DNA from: Candidatus Melainabacteria bacterium
Lineage (GTDB): Bacteria > Cyanobacteriota > Vampirovibrionia > Obscuribacterales > Obscuribacteraceae
Direction: 5' to 3'
Length of the DNA stretch: 64,000 nucleotides
NCBI GenBank assembly: GCA_963847765.1
Contig: CAWKBA010000008.1
Span: 10,643 to 74,642, forward strand
This document shows positions 7,578 to 61,788 of this stretch, piece after piece (position 1 is the stretch's first letter; every line of letters begins with the position of its first letter). The notes beneath the pieces are model-generated. The model saw nothing but the letters and a program-made list of their open reading frames with translations. It did not search any database and was not told where the DNA came from. The position numbers and the translations under genes are program-made.

Positions 7578-7600
7578 GGGCTCGTAAACTTCGCCCCTAC
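7578..7600 (-). repeat. GTAGGGGC-family element, degenerate copy (intergenic)
   Basis: The plus strand reads gggctcgtaaacttcgcccctac. It contains the exact 8-mer GCCCCTAC but its stem is imperfect. Confidence 0.5.
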
Positions 7601-7693
7601 AATTTCTTCGTTATTACTTCGTTTCTGCACTGGCACAGCAATTCACGTGATACGTCGGCGGGCGAGGCGTAGCCTGCCCTTACCGGGTCATTG

Positions 7694-9232
7694 TTACAAT
7701 TTGGTTTTGGTTTCATCTTTTACTTTGGCAAAGGCAGGCAGAAAAATTGGCAAACTGACAATAAAAGTAGAGCCTTTGCCTAAAACAGAATCGACCTCAA
7801 TTGTACCGTGATGCCTGGCAATAATTTCTCGCGTAATGGCAAGCCCCAGGCCCGTACCACCACTAGCTCTGCTTCTGGCTTTGTCAGTACGATAAAAGCG
7901 ATCGAAAATACGTGGCAAGTCAGCAGGATCAATTCCTTGCCCTGTATCTTGAATTTTAATTTGCACTTGCTCATGCTCAGCCATTGCAACAGCCACCGTC
8001 ACTGAACCTTGCTCAGGAGTGTAATTAACGGCATTAGTTAAAATATTGATTAATGCCCTCTGTAATTGCAAATAATTACCGAGCACAGAAAGTCCGGGCG
8101 ATTCATCATTATCGGCACTGTCTTCAGGCAGTTGCATAGACAAATTTATTTTTTTTCGCTGTGCCTGAGGTTTAATTTCATCGACAGCATCACGAATAAG
8201 TTGCTGCAAATTGACTGGCTCATGGCCAACACTTTCAGGAGTGCCGTCTAACCGCGTGATATCCAGCAAATCCTGCAATAAGCTTGTCTGCCGATGTACT
8301 AGTTTTTCCAACGAATTAAGAAATTGCGCTCTCAACGTATTGTCTTCGGCAGCGCCTGCCTGCAAAGCTTCTACTACAGCGCTGATAGCCATGGTTGGTG
8401 TTTTTAATTCATGGCTGGCATTAGCAAGAAATTCCTGCCTCATCCGCTCTTGTTCAGCTAACCGTCCAATCATCTGGTTAAAAGAAAGCCCTAGCTCGCC
8501 AATTTCGTCGCGCCTGGACACAGGCACAAATTCGGAAATATCTCCTGATAAAGCAATATTTTTGGCCATGGCACTCATTTCTTGTACAGGCTTACTTATA
8601 CGCTTGGCTAGCCATAGACTAATTAAAGCAGTGACCACGCCTGTAGCTAAAATGATTTCTAGAAAAACAATTAAATCATGACGCAGGCGCTGGTCTAGAT
8701 TGGTCAGGGGAACGCCAACCCGAATTACTCCAGTTGTACTTCCCGCTGATCGTACCGGATAAGCAACATAATACCAATTCGTTTGTGTAGACTGAGCCTT
8801 CCGCGTGTAGAAAGCAACAATGCCGGCAAGAGCATCGTTGATTTCTGATTGATTAGAGATATTTTCGCCGTTGCCGTTTTTTAAATTAGCCTGTGAATCA
8901 GCTAATACATTACCGCTTTCATTAACTACTGTAATAGCTACATTTAATTTTGAGGCATGGCGATCGACTGCCTTCTTTATGCGCAATTTGGCTTGCATGG
9001 AATCAAGCACTAAATCATTGTCTATTTCCAGAGATAGATTAACTGCCGCCACTTCTAATGAATTGTTTAAATCTTTAATTGATTCAGTTTTAATCATCAG
9101 TAGCGCCCAGAGACTAACTGCAAACAAAGCCACTGTCACAACCAGCAAATAGCTGAAAAGAAGCTGGTTAGCAAGGCTGCTGAAAAACCAGCGGTAAATG
9201 GTTTTGAACAATTTGAACTCGAAAATATTCAT
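7694..9232 (-). CDS. Sensor histidine kinase (two TM segments, HAMP, HisKA, HATPase_c)
   Basis: 512 aa with the H-box ASHELKTPT, the N-box ILTNAVNYTP, and the G-boxes DTGQGI and GGTGLGLAI. No response regulator gene is adjacent. Confidence 0.85.
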   Translation of the reverse strand: MNIFEFKLFKTIYRWFFSSLANQLLFSYLLVVTVALFAVSLWALLMIKTESIKDLNNSLEVAAVNLSLEIDNDLVLDSMQAKLRIKKAVDRHASKLNVAITVVNESGNVLADSQANLKNGNGENISNQSEINDALAGIVAFYTRKAQSTQTNWYYVAYPVRSAGSTTGVIRVGVPLTNLDQRLRHDLIVFLEIILATGVVTALISLWLAKRISKPVQEMSAMAKNIALSGDISEFVPVSRRDEIGELGLSFNQMIGRLAEQERMRQEFLANASHELKTPTMAISAVVEALQAGAAEDNTLRAQFLNSLEKLVHRQTSLLQDLLDITRLDGTPESVGHEPVNLQQLIRDAVDEIKPQAQRKKINLSMQLPEDSADNDESPGLSVLGNYLQLQRALINILTNAVNYTPEQGSVTVAVAMAEHEQVQIKIQDTGQGIDPADLPRIFDRFYRTDKARSRASGGTGLGLAITREIIARHHGTIEVDSVLGKGSTFIVSLPIFLPAFAKVKDETKTKL

Positions 9233-9353
9233 AACAAGAGCTTAAGATATTTAGACCAATCTGAAAAGAAAGCCACAAGTGTTACTATAATCCCTAAATA
9301 GGGCAGGTCTGTAATTGGACAAATAATCATCATTAACCGGAGGTCTATTTCCA

Positions 9354-9692
9354 ATGTCTTCTGTGGCAAATGTAACCGATAGTAGTTTTGAACAAGAGGT
9401 ACTGAAAGCCGAAGTACCGGTATTAGTTGATTTCTGGGCGCCCTGGTGCGGCCCTTGTAAAGCAGTTGCGCCCGTAGTTGAGGACTTATCTCAAGAATAC
9501 GCTGGACGCCTGAAAGTAGTTAAGCTAAATACCGACGAAAACCCGAAAACAGCACAGGCATACACTATTCGGGGTATTCCCAGTCTATACCTTTTCAAGA
9601 GCGGGCAAGTTGTTGAGCAAATTGTAGGCGCCGTGCCTAAAGCAACACTTACATCAGCAATTAACAAGCATATGGAAGCTGTTAAGCGCTAA
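9354..9692 (+). CDS. trxA: Thioredoxin
   Basis: 112 aa with [14 protein letters not shown] and the cis-Pro motif GIPS. There is a GGAGG-like RBS upstream. Confidence 0.9.
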
Positions 9693-9712
9693 TTGCTTGC
9701 ATCGGAAAATAA

Positions 9713-10216
9713 GTGAAGGAACTCTTGCTGGCTTTTATCTTGGCTCTGGTTATTGGCAGCATTATTAATGGCTGGCAGCAACAACCCAGCCCGCCAGCTC
9801 AAAGCTCAGGCACGGGCTCAAAGAACACGGGCGGAGCTTCGCCCCGCCCCTACGCGAACGCCGTTACAGGAGCGGGTCGCGATTTTCCTGTAACCGATAA
9901 TAGTTTTGAACAAGAAGTAGTAAAGGCTAAATTGCCGGTATTAGTAGATTTTTGGGCGCCCTGGTGCAGCCACTGTAAAACTATTGCTCCTGTAGTTGAA
10001 GACTTATCTCAAGAATATGCCGGGCGCCTGAAAGTAGTTAAGCTAAATACTGACGAAAATCGCAAAACTGCGCAGGCATATAATATACGGGGACTGCCAA
10101 GCCTATACATTTTCAAGAACGGGCAAGTTGTTGAACACATTGTTGGCGCTGCTCCTAAGGCAACACTGGTAGCAGCAATTAATAAATACGTTGAAGCCGT
10201 TGCGTCCGGAAAATAA
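9713..10216 (+). CDS. Membrane-anchored thioredoxin paralog (WCSHC active site)
   Basis: 167 aa. An N-terminal TM (MKELLLAFILALVIGSIINGW) is followed by a linker and a Trx domain. The Trx domain is closely similar to trxA at the nucleotide level by my hand alignment. Confidence 0.8.
   Translation: MKELLLAFILALVIGSIINGWQQQPSPPAQSSGTGSKNTGGASPRPYANAVTGAGRDFPVTDNSFEQEVVKAKLPVLVDFWAPWCSHCKTIAPVVEDLSQEYAGRLKVVKLNTDENRKTAQAYNIRGLPSLYIFKNGQVVEHIVGAAPKATLVAAINKYVEAVASGK
9828..9853 (-). repeat. GTAGGGGC hairpin element, in frame inside the thioredoxin paralog linker
   Basis: cgggcggagcttcgccccgcccctac is the near-exact reverse complement of the copy at 11086..11112. It is translated as GGASPRPY. Confidence 0.8.
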
Positions 10217-10774
10217 ATGAAAGAAATCTTGCTAGCTTTTATTTTGGCTCTAATTATTGGCAGTATTATTAATGGTTGGCAGCAACAGCCCCCTCAGGAA
10301 GCACAGCGCAAGCCAATAGCGGGTACAACTGGCAACAGTACAAAGACAAGCGAGAACACTGGCTCAACGGGCAAGGTTGTAGGGGCGGACTTTGTCCCGC
10401 CCGCACCCGCCCCTACAGGACCCAGGCGTGATTTTCCTGATTTTAACTCCTTCCCTAGCCTTGATTCTGCCAATTTTAATGATTTAGTGCTTGCCAGCGA
10501 GAAACCTGTTTTTATTGTTTGTTTTACACCCAACAATTTATCTTGCGAACGAATGATACCCCTGATTGCCGCATTGGCTCAGGAACATGCCGACTCGATA
10601 AAAATGACAAAACTGAATGTACTGGGCAATGCAGGCTTGGCACAGAAATACGAAGTTTATTCAGTGCCAACCTTTATTGCATTCAGCAAAGGACAGATAA
10701 CAGCTAGATTAACCGGGGTCGTAGCCAAAGATCGCTTAGAAGAGATGGTAAAAGTGGCAAACCAAAGCCGATAG
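10217..10774 (+). CDS. Membrane-anchored thioredoxin-like protein lacking the CxxC pair (single Cys retained)
   Basis: 185 aa. The N-terminal TM is nearly identical to that of the preceding gene. In the Trx fold, WCGPC is replaced by NNLSC and the cis-Pro motif VPT is retained. Confidence 0.7.
   Translation: MKEILLAFILALIIGSIINGWQQQPPQEAQRKPIAGTTGNSTKTSENTGSTGKVVGADFVPPAPAPTGPRRDFPDFNSFPSLDSANFNDLVLASEKPVFIVCFTPNNLSCERMIPLIAALAQEHADSIKMTKLNVLGNAGLAQKYEVYSVPTFIAFSKGQITARLTGVVAKDRLEEMVKVANQSR
10379..10404 (+). repeat. GTAGGGGC hairpin element, in frame in the thioredoxin-like linker
   Basis: gtaggggcggactttgtcccgcccgc has the stem GGGCGG/CCGCCC. Confidence 0.8.
10405..10416 (-). repeat. Partial GTAGGGGC element (half-site)
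   Basis: acccgcccctac lies immediately after the full copy and contains the exact 8-mer in the opposite orientation. Confidence 0.5.
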
Positions 10775-10831: not shown

Positions 10832-11083
10832 ATGAAGAGTTATCTGATTATTTTCATCTTAGTCCTTTGTTTTACATGTTGGTTGGGCGACGCCGGCAAT
10901 CCGCCCAGTACCGTGCCGGTTAGAATTGGTGAGATGACCAGTGCCCCTTACGGACCCATTCACCAGGAAGAGATGATACCGGATTTTACTTATGTCGATC
11001 AGCCAAGGAATAGTCCTTTTATAACCAAAATAGAAAACAGTAGTATCGGCCATGAAGCGGAATTCCCCATTGGCTTAAGATAA
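10832..11083 (+). CDS. Small secreted or lipoprotein-like protein, unknown function
   Basis: 83 aa with a hydrophobic N-terminus containing Cys residues (MKSYLIIFILVLCFTCWLG). Confidence 0.4.
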   Translation: MKSYLIIFILVLCFTCWLGDAGNPPSTVPVRIGEMTSAPYGPIHQEEMIPDFTYVDQPRNSPFITKIENSSIGHEAEFPIGLR

Positions 11084-11085
11084 TC

Positions 11086-11112
11086 GTAGGGGCGGGGCGA
11101 AGCTCCGCCCGC
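11086..11112 (+). repeat. GTAGGGGC hairpin element (intergenic)
   Basis: gtaggggcggggcgaagctccgcccgc starts 3 nt after the stop codon of the preceding ORF. Confidence 0.8.
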
Positions 11113-11353: not shown

Positions 11354-14300
11354 TTGCCGCCACGTGCAGATCTCAAAGCCCCCAAAAGTATCTGGCGCAA
11401 ATTTTTTCCTTTCTTATTTAAAGCCCCAACCATCAATCCCAAAGCTCCTACCCTGCTAAAAGAATTAGTTGGTAATGAAAGAGCCAAGACTGAAATTCAG
11501 GAAGTTGTAGAAATGCTTACTGATCCAAGCAAGTACAATGCAACCGGCGCTCAGGTGCCTAAGGGAATGCTTTTCATTGGACCACCCGGTGTTGGCAAAA
11601 CATTATTTGCCCGCGCCATTGCTAATGAAATCGGCATTCCTTTTTTCGTAATCGAAGGTTCCAGTATAAGCGGATTAATTATGGGTTTAGGTGTACTCAA
11701 ACTAAAAACATTATTTACCAAATTGCGCCAATTTGAACGATCGATAATTTTTATAGATGAAATCGATTCCATGGCAGCTCGCCGTAAAGCCGACAAAGGC
11801 TTTGGTGGTGTTGCCGACATGAATATGACTCTAAATACTTTGCTCACCGAAATGGATGGTTTTTATGGCAGCAATATGATGGTTATTGGCGCCACTAACA
11901 ATGATTCTACGTTGGATCCTGCTCTTATGCGTTCCGGCCGCATGGACAGAAGAATTTATTTTGAATTGCCTAACCCGGAAGAAAGAAAAGAGCTATTTCG
12001 CTATTACTTGAATAAAGTCAATGCTGATTGGCCGGCTATAGATTTAGACGAACTAGCTATGCTCACCGCCAATTATTCTCCAGCTGAAATTGCAGGCGTT
12101 GTTAACGAGGCGGCTTTAATTGCCAATCGCCCCAATGGTCCGGGCAAAGTGACTTCGGCTGTAATTATTCAAGCTCTGGAACGCATGTCGGTTGGACTTG
12201 AGCGCACCATGGTTGGTTCAGGCATTCAAATAACCAGTCATGATGCTTCAGTACGTCTTGATGATGTTATCGGTATTGATGATGTTAAACACGATATGCT
12301 TGAGATAGTAGATTTTTTACGGCGCGGTGATGAATTGCGACGTATTGGCGCCAAAATTCCTAAAGGTATTTTGCTGGTCGGGCCTCCTGGTGTGGGTAAA
12401 ACAATGCTCGCTAAAGCTATAGCTAACGAAGCCGGCGTACCTTTTTATGGCTTATCAGGCAGTTATTTTATCAATGCTTATGTCGGTGAAGGAGCTGAGC
12501 AAATAAGAGCCCTTTATACACAGGCGCGCAAAAGCCCGGCGGCAATTGTTTTTATGGATGAAATTGACGCTCTCGGTGGTACAGTCACAGACACAGGCAG
12601 CCAACGTCACAGTGCTCTTAATCAATTATTGGTTGAACTGGATGGCATTGGGCGCAGTAATGTTATCACTATTGGCGCCACCAACGTAGAACAAAATCTT
12701 GATCCTGCTTTTATGCGCTCGGGTAGATTCGATCGCAAAACCTATATAGGCTTACCTGATGCCGACGGCAGAAAGAAATTATTTAAAAAATATTTGAAGG
12801 ATATTAAATTAGCCTCTGAACCGGATTTAGACAATTTGGCAAAAATATCAGTCAATTTTTCCGGGGCTGATATTGCTGCTGCTACTAATGAAGCTGCCAT
12901 TATTGCCGTGCGTCGCGGCAGCAAGCATGTGGAACAAATAGATCTGGAAAATGCTGTTGATCGCATATCCGTAACGGCTGGCCATAAATTAAACACCGGC
13001 GGTATGAATTTATCTCGCGTGCCTGACATTGATGTCATGCTCGATGACGTTAAAGGCATGGATTCAGCCAAGGCTGAAGCAGCAGAAGTAGTAGCTCTGC
13101 TTAAACATGCCGATAAAGTGGCCAAAAGTGGATTGAAAGCGCCCAAAGGAATATTACTGGTAGGCCCGCCTGGTACTGGTAAAACAATGCTGGCCAAAGC
13201 CATTGCTAATGAAGCTGGTGTGCCATTTTATGCACTATCCGGCGGTGATTTCCAATCTATGTGGGCTGGTGTTGGCTCTAATCGTGTGCGCGCCGTTTAT
13301 GAGCAGGCACGCCGCAGCGGCAAGCCCTGTATTGTCTTTATAGATGAAATTGATGCCATCGGCAGCAAGCGCGGCGTAGAACGTGGTGGCGGTGCCGTGC
13401 AAGACTCTAATAAAACACTCAATCAATTATTGAGCGAGCTGGATGGTTTTGGTAAACATAAAGTGCTTACCATTGGCGCCACTAATAACGCCGATATACT
13501 TGATGGGGCGTTATTGCGTCCGGGACGTTTTGATCGCAGAATCGACATTCCATTGCCTAATCTTGAAGGCAGAGAGGCTATCGTTAAGTCTTATCTAAAA
13601 GATGTGCCTTACGATGAATCAGTAAATCCGCTTGATGTCGCTCGTATGACCGTGTATAAAGCCGGGGCTGATTTGGCCAATATTGTCAATGAAGCCGGAC
13701 TTGTTGCTATCCGTGACGGGCGCACAAAAATAGCTCAATCAGATCTTATTCAAGCTGTTCAAAGGGTCAGCTTCGGTATGTCTTACAGTGGCAATGTTTT
13801 GCGCGATGAATTGTTGCACACAGCTCATCATGAGGCCGGACACGCTATAGTCTCTTATTTCCGCAATCGCAAAGATCGCATCCAGGTATTAACCATTGTG
13901 CCTGTTGGCCAAGCGTTAGGCTATCTCTGGAGGGTACCAAAAGAAGACTATCACTCCACTTCCAAAGAAGAATGGATGACAAATATGGAAGTGGGACTTG
14001 GCGGCTATGCAGCAGAAGAATTATGTTATCAAACTACTACAGCCGGTCCTTGTTCTGATCTGGATAAAGTGGCCTATTTCGCCCGCAAGATGATCAGAGA
14101 ATGGGGCATGGGTTCATTCAAATTCAATGTTGATCGGGCCTTTGGCGGCGAATATTCTCGCACTTCGCCGGAAACTGAACGACAAATAGAAGAAGAAATC
14201 AAAGGCATTGTTGATCAATGTTTGGACAATGTGCGTGAATTGCTACGTAAGCATAAGGATAAACTGCTCAATTTAGCCGAAGCCCTCATGGAAAAAGAAA

Positions 14301-14488
14301 CTCTCTACTTCCGCGACATCGCTAGAATTCTTGAGCCTGATCGTTCCGAACTAGACATTGAACGCGAATCTTTGATATTAGCCGACAAAAAATTAGTGGG
14401 CAAAGTACCCATAATAAATCTCGAAGCTATCAAAGGTTTATCCGATCCAGAAAAAGAGCCAGAAAAACCGAAAGAAAATCCCGATTAA
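11354..14488 (+). CDS. FtsH-like ATP-dependent zinc metalloprotease with three tandem AAA+ modules and one M41 peptidase domain
   Basis: 1044 aa. Walker A GPPGVGKT / GPPGVGKT / GPPGTGKT lie near 11579, 12379 and 13162. Walker B motifs are FIDEID / FMDEID / FIDEID. There are three GATN...R.GR.DR second-region-of-homology motifs, and HHEAGHAIV lies near 13825. Confidence 0.85.
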   Translation: MPPRADLKAPKSIWRKFFPFLFKAPTINPKAPTLLKELVGNERAKTEIQEVVEMLTDPSKYNATGAQVPKGMLFIGPPGVGKTLFARAIANEIGIPFFVIEGSSISGLIMGLGVLKLKTLFTKLRQFERSIIFIDEIDSMAARRKADKGFGGVADMNMTLNTLLTEMDGFYGSNMMVIGATNNDSTLDPALMRSGRMDRRIYFELPNPEERKELFRYYLNKVNADWPAIDLDELAMLTANYSPAEIAGVVNEAALIANRPNGPGKVTSAVIIQALERMSVGLERTMVGSGIQITSHDASVRLDDVIGIDDVKHDMLEIVDFLRRGDELRRIGAKIPKGILLVGPPGVGKTMLAKAIANEAGVPFYGLSGSYFINAYVGEGAEQIRALYTQARKSPAAIVFMDEIDALGGTVTDTGSQRHSALNQLLVELDGIGRSNVITIGATNVEQNLDPAFMRSGRFDRKTYIGLPDADGRKKLFKKYLKDIKLASEPDLDNLAKISVNFSGADIAAATNEAAIIAVRRGSKHVEQIDLENAVDRISVTAGHKLNTGGMNLSRVPDIDVMLDDVKGMDSAKAEAAEVVALLKHADKVAKSGLKAPKGILLVGPPGTGKTMLAKAIANEAGVPFYALSGGDFQSMWAGVGSNRVRAVYEQARRSGKPCIVFIDEIDAIGSKRGVERGGGAVQDSNKTLNQLLSELDGFGKHKVLTIGATNNADILDGALLRPGRFDRRIDIPLPNLEGREAIVKSYLKDVPYDESVNPLDVARMTVYKAGADLANIVNEAGLVAIRDGRTKIAQSDLIQAVQRVSFGMSYSGNVLRDELLHTAHHEAGHAIVSYFRNRKDRIQVLTIVPVGQALGYLWRVPKEDYHSTSKEEWMTNMEVGLGGYAAEELCYQTTTAGPCSDLDKVAYFARKMIREWGMGSFKFNVDRAFGGEYSRTSPETERQIEEEIKGIVDQCLDNVRELLRKHKDKLLNLAEALMEKETLYFRDIARILEPDRSELDIERESLILADKKLVGKVPIINLEAIKGLSDPEKEPEKPKENPD

Positions 14489-23780: not shown

Positions 23781-23805
23781 CAGGCGGTACAAAGCCCGCC
23801 CCTAC
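23781..23805 (-). repeat. GTAGGGGC hairpin element (intergenic, between convergent genes)
   Basis: caggcggtacaaagcccgcccctac has the stem GGCGG/CCGCC. Confidence 0.7.
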
Positions 23806-23814: not shown

Positions 23815-24096
23815 TTATTTGCCGATGCGGATCATGATTTCATCTTTGCCGACCAGATTTAATCTTTCTCTGGCCAGCCGTTCAATACCGGCTGCAGAAT
23901 GATAACTATTCAGTCCATCACAAAGATCTTTATTAATTTCCAAAGCCTGCTTCTCGGTGTCTTTGAGCATCTGAGCTTGCCCAAGCAAAAATAATTGCCT
24001 ATCTACACTGCCATAGATTGACTTTACTGCTTGAAAAATAGCAAAGCCGGTAATAATAATCAGAAAAAGTTCTTTGAATAGGCGTGATTTTGTCAT
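23815..24096 (-). CDS. FtsB/DivIC-type septum formation initiator
   Basis: One TM (LFLIIITGFAIFQAV), a coiled coil, and the C-terminal signature IERLARERLNLVGKDEIMIRI. The start was placed at an internal ATG. Confidence 0.65.
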   Translation of the reverse strand: MTKSRLFKELFLIIITGFAIFQAVKSIYGSVDRQLFLLGQAQMLKDTEKQALEINKDLCDGLNSYHSAAGIERLARERLNLVGKDEIMIRIGK

Positions 24097-24101
24097 TAAA
24101 T

Positions 24102-26015: not shown

Positions 26016-27112
26016 TCAAACTATTTCTCTGCCTGATTTAGAACGAGAATATGGTGCTAAATTGACATTCGCCACCTGGGGAGGCAGGGTTTGTGTAGGG
26101 GCGCGTTGCACGCGCCCGCTTACGCCCATGTTTTCGCCCGCTCCGACCGTAAAATAGCCTGCCGCAGCTATCATAGCGGCATTGTCCGTACAAAGCGCTC
26201 GTTCAGGCAAAAATACTGGTACCGGCGACAGAGCCAGCAATTGCTGCCGCAAGGAAGAATTAGCAGCTACGCCACCAGCCAGAACTATAGCCGGCGCCTG
26301 TGTCTTTTCTGGGCACGGAGCGTTTTGTCTATCAAAGCACCAACCACCGCTTCCTGAAAAGAAGCAGCTAAATCGGCTACCGGCCAGGGTTGTTCTATCT
26401 TTTCCAGGCAGCGCCACACTGCCGTTTTTAAACCGCTGAAACTAAAATTAAAACCTGCCACTGCGGCCTTAGGAAATGGAAATCTTGTTTTGTCCCCGGA
26501 AACAGCCAGATTATCAATTGCCGGCCCGCCCGGATAGCCAAGTCCCAGTAACCGCGCCACTTTATCATATGCCTCGCCGGCAGCATCGTCAATTGTTTGC
26601 CCGATAACTTGCGCCTGGGCAAAATCATTAAAATACATAAGCTGAGTGTGCCCGCCGCTAACCAGCAAGGCTAAAAATGGTGGTGTAAGCGCAGCTTGTA
26701 GGGGCTGCTTTAGCAGCCCGTGTTCTCCGCCCGTGCCTTCGTTTTCCAGATAATTGGCACAAACATGAGCAATAAGATGATCAACACCAATTAAAGGCAA
26801 ATCCCAGGCAAACGACAGAGCTTTGGCCGCCGATAATCCTACCAACAAAGTGCCAATCAAGCCTGGTCCAATTGTGCAGGCAATACCATCCAGATCAGCA
26901 GGGCTTATTTGCGCCTGCTTCATAGCCAATTCAATCACACTATTAATGTTTTCCAGATGCTCACGGGCAGCTATTTCAGGTACGATACCGCCATAATTTT
27001 TATGCAATTCCATCTGCGACATAAGACAATTAGAGAGGATATGTCGCCCATCAGCAACCACCGCCGCTGCTGTTTCGTCACAACTGCTTTCAATACCCAA
27101 AAAAATTGCCAT
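26016..27112 (-). CDS. tsaD: tRNA N6-adenosine threonylcarbamoyltransferase, one homopolymer frameshift as sequenced, with C-terminal extension
   Basis: GIESSCDETAAAVV, GPGLIGTLLVG and LAGGVAANSSLR. The two ORFs join if the T4 run at 26305..26308 has one more base. Confidence 0.85.
26095..26119 (+). repeat. GTAGGGGC hairpin element, TTGCA-loop subtype, inside the tsaD 3' extension
   Basis: gtaggggcgcgttgcacgcgcccgc has the stem GGGCGCG/CGCGCCC. Confidence 0.8.
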
Positions 27113-33837: not shown

Positions 33838-33863
33838 GTAGGGGCGGGGCTTGTCTCCGCCCG
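33838..33863 (+). repeat. GTAGGGGC hairpin element (cpaE-cpaF intergenic)
   Basis: gtaggggcggggcttgtctccgcccg has the stem GGGCGG/CCGCCC. Confidence 0.8.
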
Positions 33864-33878
33864 TGTTCTCACCCGCCG

Positions 33879-39085: not shown

Positions 39086-39129
39086 TTTAAGAATTACTGT
39101 TTGACACTTGGTCAATCAGAGGGGGGGAT

Positions 39130-40626: not shown

Positions 40627-40684
40627 AAGGTAATTGATCCCATCTCTTCATCAAATATAACGGTTAACTGTCAATCTGCCAACT

Positions 40685-42130: not shown

Positions 42131-42279
42131 TCAATGCTCTTTCTAAAGATCCCGGCTGGACTACTCTGTATTCTGACTATACGGCAGTGATTATGAGGAG
42201 AACAAACCGTCATCAATAACCTATACTCAACGCACAGGAAGATTTTGATACCCTTAACGAGGAAAGTAATTGATTCACA

Positions 42280-43215: not shown

Positions 43216-43288
43216 GTTTTAAATCTCGGTAGAGTTTATATGTGCTTGAAAACATCCACAGAAAGGCAGGCTCTAAACGAAGCTCAAT

Positions 43289-45493
43289 ATGCTAATGTTC
43301 TATTATGGTGCCTGTGTCCCTGCCCAAACATTTTCAGTGATTATCCACAATCAGATGAATGCAGAAATTGAATCGATCGAGTCTCTAAACAAAATCCGCT
43401 TTCGTCTATTGCTTTTCAGCGTGCTTTCTCTATATATGGAGATGATGGTCATTCGTTATCTTGGCACAGAGATAACGATATTTTCGTATTTTAAGAACCT
43501 TTCGCTCATGTCCGCATTCTTAGGATTAAGTCTGGGATTTTTGTTTGCCAACAGCAATCGTGACTATTTCAAATGGTCTGGAATTGCCTTTCTGTTTCTC
43601 AATGGAATTATAGCCACTGCACTGATGCTCCATATCACCTTTTTGAGCTTTACCAACCCGTTTGAGTTCATGCTCTTCGGCGTCGGCGGTGTGAAAGAAC
43701 ATGTGCCGAGCCTAGTTGCCAGCACCGGCACGTTGTTGATTATGCTGTCCCTGTATTCACTCAGCGCTTTTTCCTTTATCGGACTCGGTCAGCGCATGGG
43801 ACAGCTCTTTTCCAAGCTTCCAGCCCTTCAGGCTTATTCCATTAACATTGCCGGCTCATTGTTGGGAACAGCTATATTCGCGCTGTTAAGTTTACTGGAA
43901 ACCTCCCCAGGAATCTGGATGCTGATTGCTGGAATCCTTTTTATTTTGGTGCAAAGAAAACCGGCACATTTTGCGATCATTGCACTGGCAATCGTCTATA
44001 TGTGCTGGCTTTCACCATGGATCACTCGCAAATTCTATGGTGATAACTATGTTAAAACTCTTTGGTCTCCTTACTATCGCATCGATCTCGTCCAATCCAG
44101 GGAAGGACTGAAGCCGCCCCTGCATTGGGGTTGGCATTTAATGGTGAATTACGACGCCTTCCAAACACTCTTGGACTGTTCGCCGAAGAACCTGGCTACA
44201 TTACCTCAAAACGCGCAAAAAGTTATGTTGCAGCTGTATAGTACGCCTTATTTGCTGGAAAAAGCAGTGCCCAAGAAAGTTTTGATTTTGGCGCCGGGAA
44301 ACGGCAGCGATGTAGCGGGAGCAATTAGATCCGGAGTAGAGAGCATTGATGCCGTTGATATAGATCCAGTGATTACCAGACTGGGCAAAACACTTCACCC
44401 TGAAAAACCATATCTTGCTCCCAATGTGTCCCTGCACGTGATGGATGCACGTACCTTTCTTAGAACTTGCACTAAGAAATACGATCTGATTGTTTTTGCC
44501 TATCTGGACAGCCATACTGCTTATTCTTGTTTCTCATCGCTTCGCACCGACAATTACATTTTCACCAAAGAAGCTTATGCGGAAGCAAATAAATTATTAA
44601 ACAAAAACGGGAAAATTTATGTTAGCTTCATTTGCTTTAAGGATTATCTCTGGGACAGGCACTGCAAAGAACTAGCAGCTGCGACCGGGACGAAACCGCT
44701 TGGCTATCGTACTTTTAACGGCAATGTTAATATCGGCTACCTTATTGCGGGTCCCGGCACAAAGGGTAAAAGCGAGGCTGATTACAATATGCCCTATCCA
44801 AAGTTTCCCGTCAATCTGAATAGTTCTGTAGCACTCGCAGAAGACGACTGGCCATTTCTATTTCTTCCTGACCGTGAACTGTCTCTTACCTATATGATTC
44901 CATTATTCTGCGTAATGATGCTTTCCTTGCTTGCGGTCATCCGGCCAATTCAGTCAGGTCTTAAGAGCAAGCTAAACTGGCAAATGCTCATGCTCGGAAT
45001 GGGTTTTATGTTGCTTGAGGTTAGAGCCATGGCCGATCTCTCATTGCTCTTTGGCTCAACCTGGTTTGTCAACGTTTTTGTGATCTCGGGCATTCTTCTC
45101 GTAATTCTTCTAGGAAACTGGTTAGCTTCCAGATTAAGCGTTAGCTATATCATTCCACTCATTATTGGCTTATGCTTCTGTCTTTTACTATCGACATTCG
45201 TGCGGGCTAGCGATCTCACCATATATGGTGAATCGCTTGGACGGGCTCTGGGAATTATATTTTATATTTTCCCTGTTACTTTTGCTGCAGCTGTTTTCGC
45301 CATAATTTTCAAACAATCAAAAATCGCCAGCAGTGCATTGGCGTTCAACCTACTGGGCGGCTTAATTGGCGTGTCTCTTGAATATACGTCGATGTGGCTT
45401 GGTGTGCGCGCCCTGGGCTGGATTGCCATTGCCATTTATATATTGCTGCTTGCCACTTTCATGAACAAGCGCCCTATTCCCAGATTACATTAA
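43289..45493 (+). CDS. Spermidine synthase-like (SAM/aminopropyl transferase fold) domain embedded in a polytopic membrane protein
   Basis: 734 aa. N- and C-terminal TM bundles flank VLILAPGNGSDVAGAI...IDAVDIDPVI...MDARTFL...YDLIVFAYLDSH. The start is uncertain. Confidence 0.65.
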   Translation: MLMFYYGACVPAQTFSVIIHNQMNAEIESIESLNKIRFRLLLFSVLSLYMEMMVIRYLGTEITIFSYFKNLSLMSAFLGLSLGFLFANSNRDYFKWSGIAFLFLNGIIATALMLHITFLSFTNPFEFMLFGVGGVKEHVPSLVASTGTLLIMLSLYSLSAFSFIGLGQRMGQLFSKLPALQAYSINIAGSLLGTAIFALLSLLETSPGIWMLIAGILFILVQRKPAHFAIIALAIVYMCWLSPWITRKFYGDNYVKTLWSPYYRIDLVQSREGLKPPLHWGWHLMVNYDAFQTLLDCSPKNLATLPQNAQKVMLQLYSTPYLLEKAVPKKVLILAPGNGSDVAGAIRSGVESIDAVDIDPVITRLGKTLHPEKPYLAPNVSLHVMDARTFLRTCTKKYDLIVFAYLDSHTAYSCFSSLRTDNYIFTKEAYAEANKLLNKNGKIYVSFICFKDYLWDRHCKELAAATGTKPLGYRTFNGNVNIGYLIAGPGTKGKSEADYNMPYPKFPVNLNSSVALAEDDWPFLFLPDRELSLTYMIPLFCVMMLSLLAVIRPIQSGLKSKLNWQMLMLGMGFMLLEVRAMADLSLLFGSTWFVNVFVISGILLVILLGNWLASRLSVSYIIPLIIGLCFCLLLSTFVRASDLTIYGESLGRALGIIFYIFPVTFAAAVFAIIFKQSKIASSALAFNLLGGLIGVSLEYTSMWLGVRALGWIAIAIYILLLATFMNKRPIPRLH

Positions 45494-47386: not shown

Positions 47387-49657
47387 GTGAGAAAATATCA
47401 GCCCAGAATGTTAAAGAAGCAGAGCAAGATTAAACTGCCCTGGAATGAAATTCGGTTCGTATTCATTTTAGCCTTTTGTTTTCTTTGTGCTGGCTGCGCA
47501 GGCAATAAAGTAACACCAGAAATTAGTTCTCAGGAGCCGGCAGACTTAAGCCCGTTACCGCCGCAACTGCAAGTTGAGCCCCTTTCTTTTGATTATCTTT
47601 TGCAATCCTATGACTTTCTTAATGACAAAAATAGAATTATTGCCCTAAAGCATTTCCTGGCTCAAAACAATCTCGACGACAGGCAAAAAGCAGAAGCTGC
47701 TTATATGCTAGCCAGGCTCATTCAGCAATCAGCTGATGCTGCCCAGGGGCAGGCGCTGCAACTTTTTGATCAAGCTCAGACTTATCCTCCTCTAAAAATA
47801 AAGTCTCTATGGCATAAAAGTGAGATTGCCGCAATACTGGGCAAAGAAAAACTGGTTCGCCAGGTTTTAGCAACTTTGCTGCCCGAATTAAAAGATCAAA
47901 CCAGCATAGCTGCCGCTCAATATTCACTGGCTCAATCATATGTAAGAGCTGGTGAAATTGACAATGCCATCCGCTTACTAAAACAAATCAGGGTTGATTT
48001 TCCCGGCACAGACTATGCCATTGGCGCAGGCTATTATCTTGGCACCCTGTCTCCCCAAAATGCCCGCGCTTATTATTTTGAATATTTGCAAGCCAGTCCC
48101 AACGGGCATTTCACCGCCGACATTCTCCTCAAACTGGAAAAGCTCGCCAGACCAAATATTTTGCCATTCAAAGAAAGCGAGCTGGTTGCAATGGCGAATG
48201 CTTACTCAGCTATTGGTGAATATAAATCAAGTCTTGCCTGCTGGCAAAAAGCCGGCACCAATAAACACTTGCTGCCGGTTGCCAGCTGTTTGCTTAGGTT
48301 GGGACAAATCAGGCCAGCTCAAGAAAAATTTTTTGAGAGTCTGGCGGAACAGGCGGATGAGCCGGGCGGGAGCGGGCGCATGCAATGCGCCCCTACCGAA
48401 TTAGCTAACGAAATCAGCTCACGTTTAAAACATGCCGACTCTATTCGCTTCTGGCAAAAACTACGAGGCTTTAAAGGTGCCTTTCAAGATAAAGTTCTCT
48501 GGAATCTTGCTATAAGGAGCAATTTCACTGATGCTCTTCGTTATTATCAAGACCTTATCACTCATTACCCGGATTCGACGTTTGCACCAGAAGCACAGTG
48601 GGTTTTGTTATGGCACAAATTTAAATCTACAAAAACCATATGGCTGCCAGCTTTATCTGAACTTTTCCATAAAGCAGCAATTAAATATAATCAGTGTTCA
48701 TTGACTCCACGATTTTTATTTTGGGCCGGAAAAACATTAGAAAAAGGCGGCAACAAACAAAGGGCGTGCTCTTATTTCAAGCAGGTCTCAAGCCAGTTTC
48801 CTTATAGTTATTACGGGCAAAGAGCTGCATTTCGTCTTAATTCACTGATCAGCTCCTCCCCAGACATTTATTTCAAGCTTCAATATTCCGGAGTTAAAAA
48901 TAATACTGATCTTCCCTGGAATTGGCCGCCACCGGAAAAATCACTTAAAGACCTGGGTAACCCGACTCTTGGTGAACTTATATATATAAAGCAATACCAG
49001 GAGGCATTGCTTGAGGGCGATAAGCTTTCAGCTAAGCTTGTCTCCTGGTTGCAGGCAATGAATGGGCAGCCCTGGTTGGCAATTAACACCGCTTATGCAT
49101 GCCTACAAGATAAGTCTTGTTCCTCGTCCGACAGCCAGATACTTCGGCAATATTCTTTCCCTTTGCTATACAATCGGGATATATCTTGTTATTGTCGCAA
49201 CAGTGGTCTGGACGATCCTGTGCTGGTGCAGGCGCTTATACGTGAAGAGTCACGTTATAATCCGCAAGCAGTAAGTTCAGCACATGCGCTTGGGCTGTGC
49301 CAGCTGATGCCTGCCACCGCCAGCAGTATTGCAGTCGGATATGGTATTAAACTTAAGAATAAAGATCAGCTTTTTCAGCCGCAAATTAATATGCGGTTGG
49401 GCATTTCTTATTTGTCGTCCGCATTGCATATTTTCAATAATGAACCATTGCTGGCTGTTGCCGGTTATAATGCCGGTATTAATGCTGTGAAAAGTTTCAC
49501 TGTAGGGGCTCGTTGCACGAGCCCGCTTCACAAAGCGCGCTCAATTGCAGATCCGGATCAGTTTGTAGAAGATTTTCCTTTTTCAGAAACACGAGATTAT
49601 ATACGTAAAGTCTTCAGCAGCCGCTGGTCTTACGACAAGATTTATGAGCATCAATAA
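47387..49657 (+). CDS. slt: Soluble lytic murein transglycosylase (Slt70-like: superhelical N-domain plus SLT catalytic domain)
   Basis: 756 aa with a GTG start and a lipobox-like LCAGC. The catalytic region is LIREESRYNPQAVSSAHALGLCQLMPATA...AGYNAG. Confidence 0.8.
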   Translation: MRKYQPRMLKKQSKIKLPWNEIRFVFILAFCFLCAGCAGNKVTPEISSQEPADLSPLPPQLQVEPLSFDYLLQSYDFLNDKNRIIALKHFLAQNNLDDRQKAEAAYMLARLIQQSADAAQGQALQLFDQAQTYPPLKIKSLWHKSEIAAILGKEKLVRQVLATLLPELKDQTSIAAAQYSLAQSYVRAGEIDNAIRLLKQIRVDFPGTDYAIGAGYYLGTLSPQNARAYYFEYLQASPNGHFTADILLKLEKLARPNILPFKESELVAMANAYSAIGEYKSSLACWQKAGTNKHLLPVASCLLRLGQIRPAQEKFFESLAEQADEPGGSGRMQCAPTELANEISSRLKHADSIRFWQKLRGFKGAFQDKVLWNLAIRSNFTDALRYYQDLITHYPDSTFAPEAQWVLLWHKFKSTKTIWLPALSELFHKAAIKYNQCSLTPRFLFWAGKTLEKGGNKQRACSYFKQVSSQFPYSYYGQRAAFRLNSLISSSPDIYFKLQYSGVKNNTDLPWNWPPPEKSLKDLGNPTLGELIYIKQYQEALLEGDKLSAKLVSWLQAMNGQPWLAINTAYACLQDKSCSSSDSQILRQYSFPLLYNRDISCYCRNSGLDDPVLVQALIREESRYNPQAVSSAHALGLCQLMPATASSIAVGYGIKLKNKDQLFQPQINMRLGISYLSSALHIFNNEPLLAVAGYNAGINAVKSFTVGARCTSPLHKARSIADPDQFVEDFPFSETRDYIRKVFSSRWSYDKIYEHQ
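48372..48396 (-). repeat. GTAGGGGC hairpin element, TTGCA-loop subtype, in frame in slt
   Basis: gcgggcgcatgcaatgcgcccctac has the stem GGGCGCA/TGCGCCC. It is translated within SGRMQCAPTE. Confidence 0.8.
49502..49526 (+). repeat. GTAGGGGC hairpin element, TTGCA-loop subtype, in frame in the slt catalytic domain
   Basis: gtaggggctcgttgcacgagcccgc has the stem GGGCTCG/CGAGCCC. It is translated as VGARCTSPL. Confidence 0.8.
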
Positions 49658-59572: not shown

Positions 59573-59625
59573 CAGGAGGCGATTACCACGTCGCCCTCTG
59601 GGGTCATTTTTTCTTTTTGTGGTTA
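59573..59625 (+). terminator. Possible intrinsic terminator after the GC-rich gene
   Basis: An imperfect stem (gaggcga...gtcgccctc) is followed by tcattttttcttttt. Confidence 0.35.
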
Positions 59626-59767
59626 TTTCACAGTGGACAGAGTCGCGGGTGGAGCACAGCAGTTATTTTATAAGGAGGAGCTGACCGTTGTTGAATTATC
59701 AGTTTTTGTACTTGTGAGAGCGTAGTATCATGACATAATGTCTATGCGTAAAATCTGGAGTATTAAC

Positions 59768-60076
59768 ATGGGACTTATTGATGATTTAGTACAAGGTATC
59801 AGCAAAGGGGTTAGTGAAATACAAGCCCGTTCGCAACAAATGATTGCCATCTACAATCTTAATCAAGAGATTAGAGAATTAGAGCAGCAAAAAATAGCTA
59901 AATTAGCCAACATTGGACGCCTGATGTACGACCAGTACGAACAACAAATAACGGCCAATGAAGAATCACTGCAGCAACTGTGCAAAGAAATAACCGCCCT
60001 GGGAAAAGACATTTCTCAATTGCAAACAAAAGTGGACAACCTTAAAGCACAAAGCAATTCTAATACTTCTGCTTGA
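59768..60076 (+). CDS. Small coiled-coil protein, unknown function
   Basis: MGLIDDLVQGISKG... has heptad-rich sequence, and GGAG lies 7 nt upstream of the ATG. Confidence 0.4.
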   Translation: MGLIDDLVQGISKGVSEIQARSQQMIAIYNLNQEIRELEQQKIAKLANIGRLMYDQYEQQITANEESLQQLCKEITALGKDISQLQTKVDNLKAQSNSNTSA

Positions 60077-60114
60077 CATTGAACCGCCATTGAATTACAC
60101 GATATAACAAGCTG

Positions 60115-61788
60115 ATGTCCAATTTAAAGAATAAACTTCTACCAGTCATACCTGTGATCATTGCCCTGATTGGCTGGCAATTTTATGTGCAGGCAACACA
60201 TAATGAATTATTACCCGGACCACTTTCATCTTTGAAAGCATTGATTGATCTGGCCACAAGCCATGTATTAATAATAGATTGTCTGTCCAGCCTTAAACGA
60301 GTATTCATTGGCTTTTGCTTTGCTGCTGTTACCGGCATTGTCCTTGGCCTGGCAATGGGATTGATTGCCCGTTTACGCATGGCTTTTGTTCCTATTATTG
60401 AATTGCTGCGACCAATCCCTCCTCTAGCCTGGATTCCTATAGCCATCACCCTTTTCGGTATCGGCGATCTATCATCATCGTTCGTCATTTTCATCGGTGC
60501 TTTCTATCCCATTTTTACCAATACATTGCTTGGTGTACGAGAAGTACCTATTACCTACATAGATGCAGCCAAAATGTTGGGGGCATCCAATTGGAGAATC
60601 TACCGACAGGTTATTTTGCCCAGTGCTTTGCCCAGTATATTTGCCGGATTAAGAATTGGTCTTGGTACTGCCTGGGCCTGTGTTGTCGCTGCCGAGATGA
60701 TTGCTGCCCGCAGTGGTCTGGGTTATGAAATCCAGCTTAACCGGCAATTATTACAACTAGACCGTGTAGTCGCCGGCATGGCTGTCATTGGCTTGATTGG
60801 TGTGACTATGAATACGCTAATGCACTGGCTGGAATTATATTGCCTGCCCTGGGAAAAAATATCGGGTGCGGGTTCCGGGCTCAGTGAACCTCGCCCCTAC
60901 ACAAGCCTCGCCCCTACTAGCCCGTCCCTCCCAGATCGCCCATCCGAGCTCATAAATCTCGCCTCGACAAATGTCGTGCCAACAAAATTACTTGGCGCGG
61001 CTGTACAGCTTGATAAAGTTGCCTTCAGTTATGGATCCACTAACATAATTGACGACATATCTCTGTCCATAAAGCCCAGCGAGTTCTTTTGTCTGCTTGG
61101 TTCCAGTGGTTGCGGTAAGACTTCGTTATTGCGCCTGATTGCCGGTCTTAATCAACCAACAGCAGGTAAAGTCACCATAAATGGTGGCATGATTGTCAAT
61201 CATAGATCTGAAATCACCATGGTTTTTCAAGCAGGGGCCTTATTTCCCTGGTTAACAGCCCTGGAAAACATTGCTTTCTCTCTGCAATCCAGAGGCTTGT
61301 CAAAAACAAAAGCCCTTGTTGAAGCCAAATCAATTCTGGCCATTGTTAGTCTGACCCATCTTGCTGCTCATTATCCCAACCAATTATCCGGCGGACAACA
61401 GCAAAGAATTGCCCTGGCTAGAGCACTTGCTTATCAACCACATTTGATTTTGTTGGATGAACCGTTTGCTGCTCTCGATAGTCAAACGCGCGAACTGCTT
61501 CAAGAAGATATTTCTTTACTTTTAGCGAACATGGGTGTTACCGTAATCCTTGTCACACACGACATCCGCGAAGCTGTGTTTATGGCCGATCGTGTCGCGG
61601 TTATGTCGCGCGGGCGTATAGTCAATGAACTTACCATTGATCTTGCTCGCCCTAGAGAAGATTCTTGCCGTTATAGTCAGCAGTTCAGTAAGGCACGAGC
61701 AACACTCTGGGACACCATGCATGGTAAGAACAGCAGTATAACAACTGCGCAGAATAGTATGAATCAATTGGAAATCTCACAATGCTAA
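60115..61788 (+). CDS. Fused ABC transporter permease-ATPase (nitrate/sulfonate/taurine NitT/TauT type)
   Basis: The permease has the EAA-like region DAAKMLGASNWRIYRQVILPSALP. The ATPase has GSSGCGKTS, LSGGQQQRIALARAL and ILLDEPFAALD. The two are joined by a linker of about 45 aa. Confidence 0.85.
   Translation: MSNLKNKLLPVIPVIIALIGWQFYVQATHNELLPGPLSSLKALIDLATSHVLIIDCLSSLKRVFIGFCFAAVTGIVLGLAMGLIARLRMAFVPIIELLRPIPPLAWIPIAITLFGIGDLSSSFVIFIGAFYPIFTNTLLGVREVPITYIDAAKMLGASNWRIYRQVILPSALPSIFAGLRIGLGTAWACVVAAEMIAARSGLGYEIQLNRQLLQLDRVVAGMAVIGLIGVTMNTLMHWLELYCLPWEKISGAGSGLSEPRPYTSLAPTSPSLPDRPSELINLASTNVVPTKLLGAAVQLDKVAFSYGSTNIIDDISLSIKPSEFFCLLGSSGCGKTSLLRLIAGLNQPTAGKVTINGGMIVNHRSEITMVFQAGALFPWLTALENIAFSLQSRGLSKTKALVEAKSILAIVSLTHLAAHYPNQLSGGQQQRIALARALAYQPHLILLDEPFAALDSQTRELLQEDISLLLANMGVTVILVTHDIREAVFMADRVAVMSRGRIVNELTIDLARPREDSCRYSQQFSKARATLWDTMHGKNSSITTAQNSMNQLEISQC
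60875..60900 (-). repeat. GTAGGGGC-family element in the ABC fusion linker
   Basis: ccgggctcagtgaacctcgcccctac is translated as GLSEPRPY. Confidence 0.65.
60906..60917 (-). repeat. Partial GTAGGGGC element in the ABC fusion linker
   Basis: cctcgcccctac is a second exact 8-mer, 17 nt after the first. Confidence 0.55.

Follow-up and report, generated by a model that had tools for sequence, protein, structure and literature searches.

The window analyzed here is the whole 64-kb stretch of DNA (64,000 nucleotides) from an Obscuribacterales genome. It carries 12 copies of a short G+C-rich hairpin element headed by the motif GTAGGGGC, or GCCCCTAC when read on the opposite strand, and these copies probably represent a family of repetitive extragenic palindromes (REPs). 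The host genes were confirmed with Pfam and encode three thioredoxins, TsaD, an SLT-domain protein with TPR repeats (Slt) and a fused BPD_transp_1 + ABC_tran protein. The copies are listed below with their coordinates in the window and strand.

7577..7600 (-): copy GTAGGGGCGAAGTTTACGAGCCCG; intergenic, with the histidine kinase gene 7694-9232(-) 94 nt upstream; stem mismatched (G.A/A.G) and hairpin weak (dG -3.2, z -0.9)
9804..9853 (-): copy with core 9828-9853, GTAGGGGCGGGGCGAAGCTCCGCCCG, and a 3′ tail with an extra GCCCG half-site; antisense in the linker between transmembrane anchor and thioredoxin domain of trx2 (9713-10216); 9-bp stem, -9.7 kcal/mol; translated TGGASPRPY
10379..10416 (+): double-foot copy GTAGGGGCGGACTTTGTCCCGCCCGCACCCGCCCCTAC; linker of trx3 (10217-10774); translated VGADFVPPAPAPT; -10.3 kcal/mol
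11086..11111 (+): copy; intergenic, starting 2 nt past the stop codon of open reading frame (ORF) 10832-11083
23781..23805 (-): copy with partly decayed stem; 9 nt past the stop of a DivIC-like gene (23815-24141, -), between convergent genes
26095..26147 (+): copy with core 26095-26118, GTAGGGGCGCGTTGCACGCGCCCG, and a tail with two further GCCC half-sites; antisense within TsaD's C-terminal tail and upstream of its conserved YSRSK end; translated ...GAGENMGVSGRVQRAPT...; -11.3 kcal/mol
26698..26737 (+): copy with core 26698-26720, GTAGGGGCTGCTTTAGCAGCCCG, and tail TGTTCTCCGCCCGTGCC; antisense, within the loop of TsaD that follows the HxxxH helix (ANYLE^LxPPF); -8.3 kcal/mol
33838..33878 (+): copy with core 33838-33863 and tail TGTTCTCACCCGCCG; intergenic, between TadZ/CpaE-like and CpaF-like genes
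48343..48396 (-): copy with core 48373-48396, GTAGGGGCGCATTGCATGCGCCCG, and a tail with CCGCCCG/CCGCC half-sites; antisense in Slt; translated ...PGGSGRMQCAPT...; -10.1 kcal/mol
49502..49525 (+): copy GTAGGGGCTCGTTGCACGAGCCCG; sense in the SLT domain region of Slt; translated VGARCTSP; -9.5 kcal/mol, z -5.0
60863..60900 (-): copy with core 60876-60900, GTAGGGGCGAGGTTCACTGAGCCCG, and tail GAACCCGCACCCG; permease-ATPase linker of the fused ABC protein 60115-61788; stem with a G.A/A.G mismatch
60901..60917 (-): truncated head GTAGGGGCGAGGCTTGT; same ABC linker, abutting copy 60863..60900

Exact matches of the motif number 13 in the window; 100 dinucleotide-preserving shuffles average 0.96 and reach 4 at most. 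The preliminary description of this DNA had listed 12 positions by eye; all 12 are correct, but the match at 26698(+) inside TsaD had been overlooked. The same description had stated that its reading would fall if a genome-wide count showed no enrichment over a composition-matched model, and within the window the excess of 13 over 0.96 speaks for the reading. The 13 matches amount to 12 elements because a single 38-nt palindrome has the matches at 10379 and 10409 as its feet. The density of GTAGGGGC is 203 per Mb in the window and ∼25 per Mb in 1.36 Mb of unrelated metagenome-assembled genomes (loci L001-L080), which are an imperfect control as most of them are much richer in G+C than the window (39-47%). 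These control loci came from a contig scan with the FtsH-like protein of the window; their FtsH genes are ∼40% identical to it and belong to unrelated phyla. In the Actinomycetota control loci, pairs of GTAGGGGC...GCCCCTAC were recognized as orthologous stop-codon-plus-terminator hairpins and set aside as unrelated. Heads in the window with one mismatch to the motif are chance-like and without hairpins. The FtsH-like protein itself (window 11354-14488(+), 1044 aa) has three AAA modules followed by Peptidase_M41 (Pfam), and an ordinary FtsH has one AAA module.

The elements show no strand bias (five plus, six minus and one symmetric), and GC skew is of the same sign across the whole window. Scans of the 64 kb for HIP1 octamers, for tRNA and for Rfam families at gathering thresholds were all negative. 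The G+C content dips to 0.39-0.41 at 36000-44000, compared with 0.43-0.47 elsewhere, and zero copies are located there. This segment, whose genes are a GT87 glycosyltransferase and ORFs without Pfam match, may be foreign.

Anatomy and folding of the unit

The unit is about 21-26 nt long (23-26 nt in the window copies, 38 nt in the double-foot copy). Read in register, every copy begins with GTAG, continues directly with a GGGC-stem-loop-GCCC hairpin and ends with a terminal G. The GCCCGC ending proposed earlier is therefore approximate: GCCC followed by G is constant, but the base after this G is variable. The copies 9828-9853(-) and 11086-11111(+), previously described as near-identical and in opposite orientation, are in fact identical over 26 nt. 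The inner stem and the loop of 3-5 nt vary from copy to copy and yet the stem arms remain complementary (GCG/CGC, GCA/TGC, TCG/CGA, TGC/GCA, and GGGGC/GCTCC). In every window copy the foot of the stem consists of three G-C pairs directly after GTAG, as in the REPs of subclass 2.4 (PMC6006769).

Eight of the 12 elements fold as single-stranded DNA (ssDNA), with stems of 7-9 bp (the double-foot copy has a 10-bp outer stem), energies of -8 to -11 kcal/mol and z scores of -2.9 to -5.0. GTAG is unpaired in all seven well-folding single-foot copies, and the feet of the double-foot copy are paired to one another. The remaining four comprise three weak hairpins and one truncated head. Tandem G.A/A.G mismatches are common to two of the weak copies, one of which (60863..60900) recurs as a near-identical 24-mer in a related genome (L281:12282). 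Since such a copy exists in a relative, the mismatch copies may be a sub-family rather than products of decay. One or two extra NCCCG half-sites occur within 20 nt 3′ of seven of the 12 copies (∼9 seen vs ∼0.4 expected from the frequency in the window), so that an insertion commonly spans 35-50 nt. The copies in the window are without flanking direct repeats. A miniature inverted-repeat transposable element (70-300 bp, with terminal inverted repeats and target-site duplication) was considered and rejected, given a unit of 23-26 nt and no flanking direct repeats.

Pairing in the stem was further examined by covariation, using 284 independent copies (distinct flanks) of GTAGGGGC-NNN-TTGCA-NNN-GCCC from all loci. 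The three free stem pairs are Watson-Crick in 831 of 852 cells, although the doublet scan used a pattern in which the innermost pair was already set. One pair takes all four Watson-Crick types, and none of 2000 column shuffles reached the observed pairing. GTAG directly before a G+C-rich imperfect palindrome of 20-40 nt is the definition of GTAG-tagged REPs (Di Nocera 2013, PMC3733652), and the window elements are short G+C-rich stem-loops with GTAG at the foot. The double-foot form, with GTAG at the 5′ end and CTAC at the 3′ end, is seen at 10379-10416 and in palindromes of the RGVLQYAPT type in homologs of the REP-associated tyrosine transposase (RAYT). The REPs of subclass 2.4 are described as long canonical ones with three G-C pairs at the bottom of the stem, and include “double foot” forms (PMC6006769). 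The preliminary description did not recognize the element as a described family; that view does not hold, as it fits the GTAG-tagged REP superfamily (PMC3733652) and, within it, the subclass-2.4 type (PMC6006769).

Insertions in coding sequence

The preliminary description had most copies inside ORFs with the frame unbroken, and this is borne out: eight of the 12 elements (nine of the 13 motif matches) are read through, one each in trx2 and trx3 and two each in TsaD, Slt and the ABC permease-ATPase linker. The intergenic copies are those with motif positions 7593, 11086, 23798 and 33838. Read-through is easy because a stop occurs in just one of the unit's six frames, the sense frame that reads G-TAG; the other five are open. 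Five frame/orientation combinations are used in the window, and therefore the peptide itself is not what is conserved. Among the intragenic copies six are antisense and two are sense, which is not clearly different from the 3:2 expected from the open frames.

Comparison with orthologs was possible for Slt and TsaD. Slt was aligned over its full length with nine orthologs (42-61% identity), and it has private insertions of 8 aa and 7 aa located exactly at its two elements, 48343..48396 and 49502..49525, respectively. None of the 12 TsaD orthologs (61-75% identity) has any residue between ANYLE and LxPPF, where the TsaD of the window has a loop insert of ∼16 residues encoded by element 26698 and its tail. 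Similarly, ∼17 extra residues in the C-terminal tail of TsaD derive from element 26095 and are missing upstream of YSRSK in the same 12 orthologs. Structure modelling covered the TsaD copies. The AlphaFold2 model of the window TsaD is confident as a whole, with a mean predicted local distance difference test (pLDDT) score of 80.6, and scores under 50 are confined to residues 126-138 and 327-365, the two element-derived segments (the loop after the HxxxH helix and the tail). Judged from these alignments, all four copies testable against orthologs are private in-frame insertions. Orthologs that carried the same peptides had been named as a finding that would overturn the proposal; the peptides are missing from the nine Slt and 12 TsaD orthologs, and so they are not ordinary conserved coding sequence. 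The TsaD gene (window 26016-27112(-)) is read as two overlapping ORFs via a 1-nt frameshift in a short homopolymer run at ∼26330-26345, and the public record likewise calls its 275-aa N-terminal part alone (P0158). The frameshift could be either an assembly indel or the mark of a real pseudogene; in the latter case it would weaken the claim that the TsaD insertions are tolerated in a working enzyme.

The elements in trx2 and trx3 were compared between the paralogs only, and fall between a shared N-terminal anchor and a shared RDFP motif that precedes the Trx domain. The three thioredoxin genes stand in a row (window 9354-10774(+)): a cytoplasmic-type trx1 is followed by the two paralogs, which have a common N-terminal membrane anchor and different element-bearing linkers, and the active-site region of trx3 has diverged. 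In the ABC protein the two elements lie in a tolerant permease-ATPase linker, which is variable in all homologs, and the fusion is ancestral. The best homologs are fused as well, and for these two reasons the element was ruled out as creator of the permease-ATPase fusion.

It could be argued that there is no feature at all, only a chance or compositional excess of a k-mer or a conserved coding sequence for a Pro/Ala/Arg-rich peptide. The 8-mer is also present at chance-like or terminator-like sites in unrelated G+C-rich DNA. However, none of 100 shuffles had more than four matches compared with the 13 observed, the hairpin covaries, the orthologs lack the peptides, and five frames and orientations are used; this explanation can practically be dismissed.

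The insertions in Slt and TsaD, with conserved sequence downstream of them, are of the kind expected for Rickettsia palindromic elements (RPEs), selfish palindromes specialised for in-frame insertion in genes, of which the preliminary description was reminded. Classical RPEs are ∼100-150 bp long; they are not known outside Rickettsia, nor are they known to be linked to GTAG or to RAYT subclass 2.4. In-frame insertion is confirmed here in several unrelated genes, and RPE-4 and RPE-6 have been equated with short tagged REPs (PMC3733652). The short rickettsial elements nevertheless carry a CGTC tag rather than GTAG (PMC3733652), and the present element, of 23-26 nt, GTAG-tagged and in an Obscuribacterales host, differs from RPEs in length, tag and lineage. 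Moreover, its head is identical to that of REPs in and around RAYT genes, and four of the 12 copies are intergenic. The analogy of in-frame palindromic insertion is thus apt, but the elements are not RPEs in the strict sense, and we regard membership in, or close analogy to, that group as very unlikely.

Occupancy in relatives, wider distribution and the RAYT link

Relatives were reached via protein matches and are represented by L082/L280 (JGI 3300020798 / SRR8432610), L084/L281 (ERZ25073694) and L085 (a 3.4-Mb contig); positions 32-58 kb of the window are syntenic with them. L082 has eight GTAGGGGC matches in 12.5 kb, including inverted doublets such as GTAGGGGCTGATTGCATCAGCCC-11 nt-GGGCGGATGCAATCCGCCCCTAC, the arrangement known as REPIN. 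Zero exact GTAGGGGC was found in the syntenic loci of L084 and L085 (43 kb). Between TadZ and CpaF, the window and L084 both have an intergenic copy, and L280 and L085 have an empty site. The L084 copy (GTAGGAGC...GCTC, in full GTAGGAGCGGATTGTATCCGCTCGTGTT) has the same place and orientation as that in the window, and its foot is altered on both sides, from GGGC/GCCC to GAGC/GCTC. The stem is thus compensated, and together with the 831 of 852 paired cells this indicates that the stem is maintained by compensatory changes. The gene beside this site is 96.7% identical between the window and L084 at the protein level and 83.5% at the DNA level, so that neutral sites have well diverged while the hairpin persisted. 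In L085 the TadZ-CpaF intergenic region (556-760, 205 nt) has no REP and contains a direct repeat, CCTTATTATTAAACGCTG[TC]TTCAGCT, in two copies.

The TsaD loop differs in content among the three lineages: the window has a single antisense element with its tail, L280 a full doublet plus a short tandem repeat, and L281 a decayed remnant ending in CACCTAC. Because the contents of all three end in ...CTAC on the same side, they fit a single old insertion that was later remodelled in place; alternatively, there may have been repeated insertion at a hot spot. The site downstream of a MerR-like gene is empty in the window (…GCGTAG|CTCC) and in L084 (…GCTTAG|CTTT), and L082 has a 165-nt composite insertion containing REPs directly past the stop codon (…GCGTAG|GGGC…). 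This looks like an insertion 3′ of a pre-existing GTAG, by analogy with the chemistry of the IS200/IS605 type. It is also evident that the end of the Slt ortholog in L082 (…YYQPLR*, 2497-2509) is encoded by the first 12 nt of an antisense head (GCCCCTAC…), where a truncated REP seems to have replaced the end of the gene. In L084 the GMP synthase gene (6800-8000) is called in at least four pieces, which suggests frequent indel errors in this long-read assembly, and frame arguments from L084 need caution. These site comparisons indicate that copies are gained, lost and remodelled between related genomes.

Some of these observations could also be explained if the hairpins were functional and selected by the host as terminators, mRNA stabilisers or protein-binding sites, and alike by convergence. 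Three of the four intergenic copies are sense-oriented downstream of a gene, two of them 2-9 nt past the stop codon; the remaining one sits within the TadZ-CpaF operon, where its stem was retained by compensatory change despite diverged synonymous sites. The counterpart of 23781-23805 in L280 (11820-11870) and L281 (5520-5570) is a terminator-like GACGGG…CCCGTC hairpin with a T-run between the convergent genes, which the element may have replaced in the window. On the other side, eight of the 12 copies are within coding regions in both orientations and none has a T-run, identical 26-mers are found at unrelated places, presence and absence vary between relatives, and the same head is shared by genomes of 29-69% GC. 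Host selection as the origin of the family thus appears quite improbable, and secondary use of some copies by the host is compatible with the REP explanation.

We then looked beyond the relatives, querying public collections with GTAGGGGCNNNTTGCANNNGCCC, a form that three window copies share with those of L082. It was found in 63 stretches of viral contigs, and the inverted-doublet form was found in 119 stretches of metagenomes. These loci span 29-69% G+C, yet one and the same 23-mer, GTAGGGGCGTATTGCATACGCCC, is found in most of them; the Ga0207053 lineage differs in having stem variants of its own. In L233 (189-455), three tandem 89-nt units form an array of composite elements; in each unit the same ttgagatgatac sequence, in inverted context, surrounds a REP doublet. 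In some other loci the copies are nested in larger palindromes or in heptamer tandem repeats (L114, L098, L107, and L124).

The nesting in heptamer repeats recalls the cyanobacterial small dispersed repeats (SDRs), which would have moved via RNA intermediates and not by RAYT. SDRs, attributed to Elhai 2008, are reportedly hairpin elements of 21-27 nt that nest in heptamer repeats, and movement through an RNA intermediate is said to have been proposed for them. Size and hairpin shape agree with that description; the same 23-mer lies within heptamer repeats in the four loci above, the host belongs to a sister lineage of Cyanobacteria, and no RAYT was seen in the window. The physical tie to subclass-2.4 RAYT genes described below nevertheless favors the RAYT route, nothing points to an RNA intermediate, and SDRs and GTAG-tagged REPs may be overlapping descriptions of one phenomenon. 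We consider movement of the SDR type improbable.

Subclass 2.4 of TnpA_REP, equal to RAYT group 4 of Bertels 2017, is characterized by the motifs NH[IFV]H / WQ / YIxNNP (Quentin 2018, PMC6006769). Six-frame ORFs of all loci were searched by phmmer with the E. coli TnpA_REP, whose sequence is identical to PDB 4ER8, and one match was obtained: L164:279-833, a Y1_Tnp protein (Pfam PF01797) with the motifs PNHVHGII, WQRNYYERIIRN and YICENP, which fit subclass 2.4 (NHVH / WQ / YIxENP). A regular-expression search for RAYT motifs had passed over this protein, in which the HUH motif is HVHGI. The L164 gene contains an in-frame REP doublet, GTAGGGGCGAATTGCATTCGCCC...CCCCTAC, which encodes VGANCIRPQITTGECNSPL. 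Without this insert the protein has 7508 homologs at E<1e-5, several of them named ‘REP element-mobilizing transposase RayT’ by JGI. Among the best 120 homologs, at least 75 encode REP-derived peptides ∼10 residues after the HUH motif, often in tandem arrays; the peptide types are VGA[NY]CIRP, RGELHSP, RGVLHTP, G[EV]CN[ST]PL, GR[MV]Q.APT and the double-foot RGVLQYAPT. REPs inserted with the frame intact within subclass-2.4 tnpA_REP genes have been described before (PMC6006769).

At the DNA level, GTAGGGGC hairpins are found inside the RAYT gene in L164, L273, L277 (two genes) and L271 (two hairpins), and in L269 REPs flank the RAYT gene and a GTGG-headed one lies within it. The same head and hairpin are found in or beside five distinct RAYT genes of subclass 2.4, all from other genomes or metagenomes. 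The hairpin in the L273 gene, GTAGGGGCGCGTTGCACGCGTCC…GGGCGCGTGCAACGCGCCCCTAC, has the stem type of window copy 26095. This RAYT gene (P0114; L273 4600-5200, also in L274-L276) has a Fic/RhuM gene on one side and, on the other, the following gene of a type I restriction-modification locus. An additional GTAGGGGC lies 4 nt before its start codon, with the TAG of the motif serving as the stop of the upstream gene, and the start of the downstream gene overlaps its end; it looks as if the whole RAYT gene had been inserted after GTAG. In L277 (9998-13418, also L278 and L279), the RAYT genes P0037 and P0038 are part of a MoxR-like AAA / DUF5682 / VWA operon of 40% G+C; each has an internal REP doublet, and the 20 kb fetched contain zero further REPs. 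When viral contigs were scanned for RAYT homologs, only four loci were obtained.

Interpretation and comparison with known systems

We conclude that the elements are probably a REP family of the GTAG-tagged superfamily, of the sub-type that accompanies TnpA_REP/RAYT subclass 2.4 (group 4), in an Obscuribacterales genome. Proteins that cluster with those of the window bear the names Candidatus Obscuribacterales or Melainabacteria. Subclass 2.4 is plentiful among Cyanobacteria and Bacteroidetes and scattered elsewhere (PMC6006769), and Cyanobacteria, in which it is common, are the sister group of the host lineage (PMC6006769, PMC5581495). Mobilisation by a RAYT is inferred by analogy.

Several observations weigh against this conclusion. 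The transposase link rests on other genomes, since a RAYT profile search found no RAYT in the 64-kb window or in the Obscuribacterales loci L081-L086, L280-L281 and the Ga0207053 contigs. RAYT group 4 is known from 17 bacterial classes and the abundance of its flanking repeats is modest (Bertels 2017, PMC5581495). GTAG-tagged REPs are predominantly extragenic, and here the majority is intragenic (8 of 12). Inverted doublets (REPINs), which many regard as the unit that replicates, far from predominating, are not seen in the window, which has singletons and one fused double-foot copy; they are found in L082/L280 and in the 119 metagenome stretches. The TTGCA loop occurs in just three of the 12 window copies, and the rest share only the head and the stem foot. 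The evidence on target sites is mixed: the empty MerR site ends in GTAG, but the empty TadZ-CpaF site has no GTAG, and GTAG may be either target or cargo. Comparison with homologs gave no empty-site orthologs for the ABC linker copies, nor is there empty-site proof for the copies in trx2 and trx3.

Part of this picture was already known, namely GTAG-tagged REPs, their association with RAYT 2.4 and in-frame intragenic copies; REPs in frame in many genes were catalogued in 2013, and their survival in flexible linkers and loops was argued (PMC3733652). What is new is the Obscuribacterales host, a locally high density of copies and the large fraction within genes (8 of 12), together with a clear series in which sites of an essential enzyme are filled, empty or remodelled and the near-identical 23-mer across genomes of differing composition. 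Full-text literature searches for the 8-mer and for 15- to 20-mers returned no relevant paper, and the GTAGGGGC sequence was not found in the text or supplements searched of PMC3733652.

Cleavage and joining at the GTAG of a REP have been demonstrated for E. coli TnpA_REP (PMC3479197, PMC8266576). By analogy with this enzyme and with IS200/IS605, the hairpin would form on ssDNA, and a RAYT (HUH/Y1 endonuclease) would recognise the stem foot and the GTAG guide and cut and rejoin there. Such cutting and joining would copy or move the unit and could spread it across the genome. Selection would then purge insertions causing a frameshift, introducing TAG or landing in a structured region of a protein. 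The survivors in genes would be those with a length that is a multiple of three, out of the G-TAG frame and in a tolerant loop, linker or tail, and these would simply be translated. As a conjecture, the half-site tails in the window and the ‘NELHSPDN’-type tandem arrays in RAYT loops could result from repeated partial events or from slippage at the 3′ arm.

In four of the intragenic copies the hairpin is still perfect over 7-8 bp, and subclass-2.4 RAYT genes, even the shortest members, hold their own REP at a fixed site ∼10 residues past the HUH motif. The perfect intragenic hairpins and the varied occupancy of the TsaD loop in three lineages would mean ongoing turnover or selection at the nucleic-acid level, and the RAYT-borne REP at a fixed site, with nearly the same 23-mer in genomes of 29-69% GC, would fit a self-contained transferable kit. 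We raise, as a speculative possibility, that REPs in this lineage are a standing source of in-frame peptide cassettes, with ongoing RAYT-driven turnover or nucleic-acid-level selection in coding DNA, and that a kit of RAYT plus REP seed colonises genomes horizontally. REPs, usually treated as intergenic, can account for most lineage-specific differences in length among conserved proteins, here in a poorly explored phylum of Cyanobacteria relatives that do not photosynthesize. For annotation, Pro/Ala/Arg/Gly-rich inserts (VGARCT.P, GR.Q.APT, and ..PRPY) can be recognised as REP-derived and disordered, in Obscuribacterales and others. The window extends the known range and density of the REP type of RAYT subclass 2.4, and its filled, empty and remodelled sites can be used to study the movement of 25-nt units.

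RPEs resemble the present elements as palindromes that lie in frame in protein genes and add peptides to surface regions, but they are several times longer or CGTC-tagged. The REPs and bacterial interspersed mosaic elements (BIMEs) of E. coli, with their TnpA_REP (PDB 4ER8; PMC3479197, PMC8266576), share a GTAG guide beside an imperfect palindrome and recognition as ssDNA by a Y1 HUH enzyme, whereas their RAYT belongs to subclass 2.2 and the REPs are longer, bulged, extragenic, arranged in BIMEs and dissimilar in stem sequence. The REPINs of Pseudomonas (Bertels and Rainey 2011, PMC3116915) are inverted doublets with a short spacer like those of L082 and the 119 metagenome stretches; in comparison, the window has no doublets apart from the fused double-foot copy, the spacers are far shorter (8-13 nt) and the RAYT group is another one. 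The GTAG-tagged REPs, including the intragenic ones of Opitutus terrae (PMC3733652), are alike in the 20-40 nt stem-loop with unpaired GTAG and 6-9 bp stems, in G-T pairs, in dimers (here in relatives), in sites just 3′ of ORFs and in loop or linker peptides read in frame. Most REPs of that survey are intergenic, however, and the present host phylum is outside it (PMC3733652). The closest likeness in detail is to the REPs of subclass 2.4/group 4, which have GT[AG]G at the hairpin foot, three G-C pairs, the double-foot GTAG...CTAC form and in-frame insertions (PMC6006769, PMC5581495); the same head and hairpin occur inside subclass-2.4 RAYT genes, and the group is known from Cyanobacteria-related and many other phyla. 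In contrast to those REPs, most copies here are in housekeeping genes rather than flanking or inside RAYT genes, they are singletons with stuttered 3′ half-sites rather than dimers, and locally, at 1 per 5 kb, they seem more frequent than would be expected from group 4, for which a modest abundance is reported.

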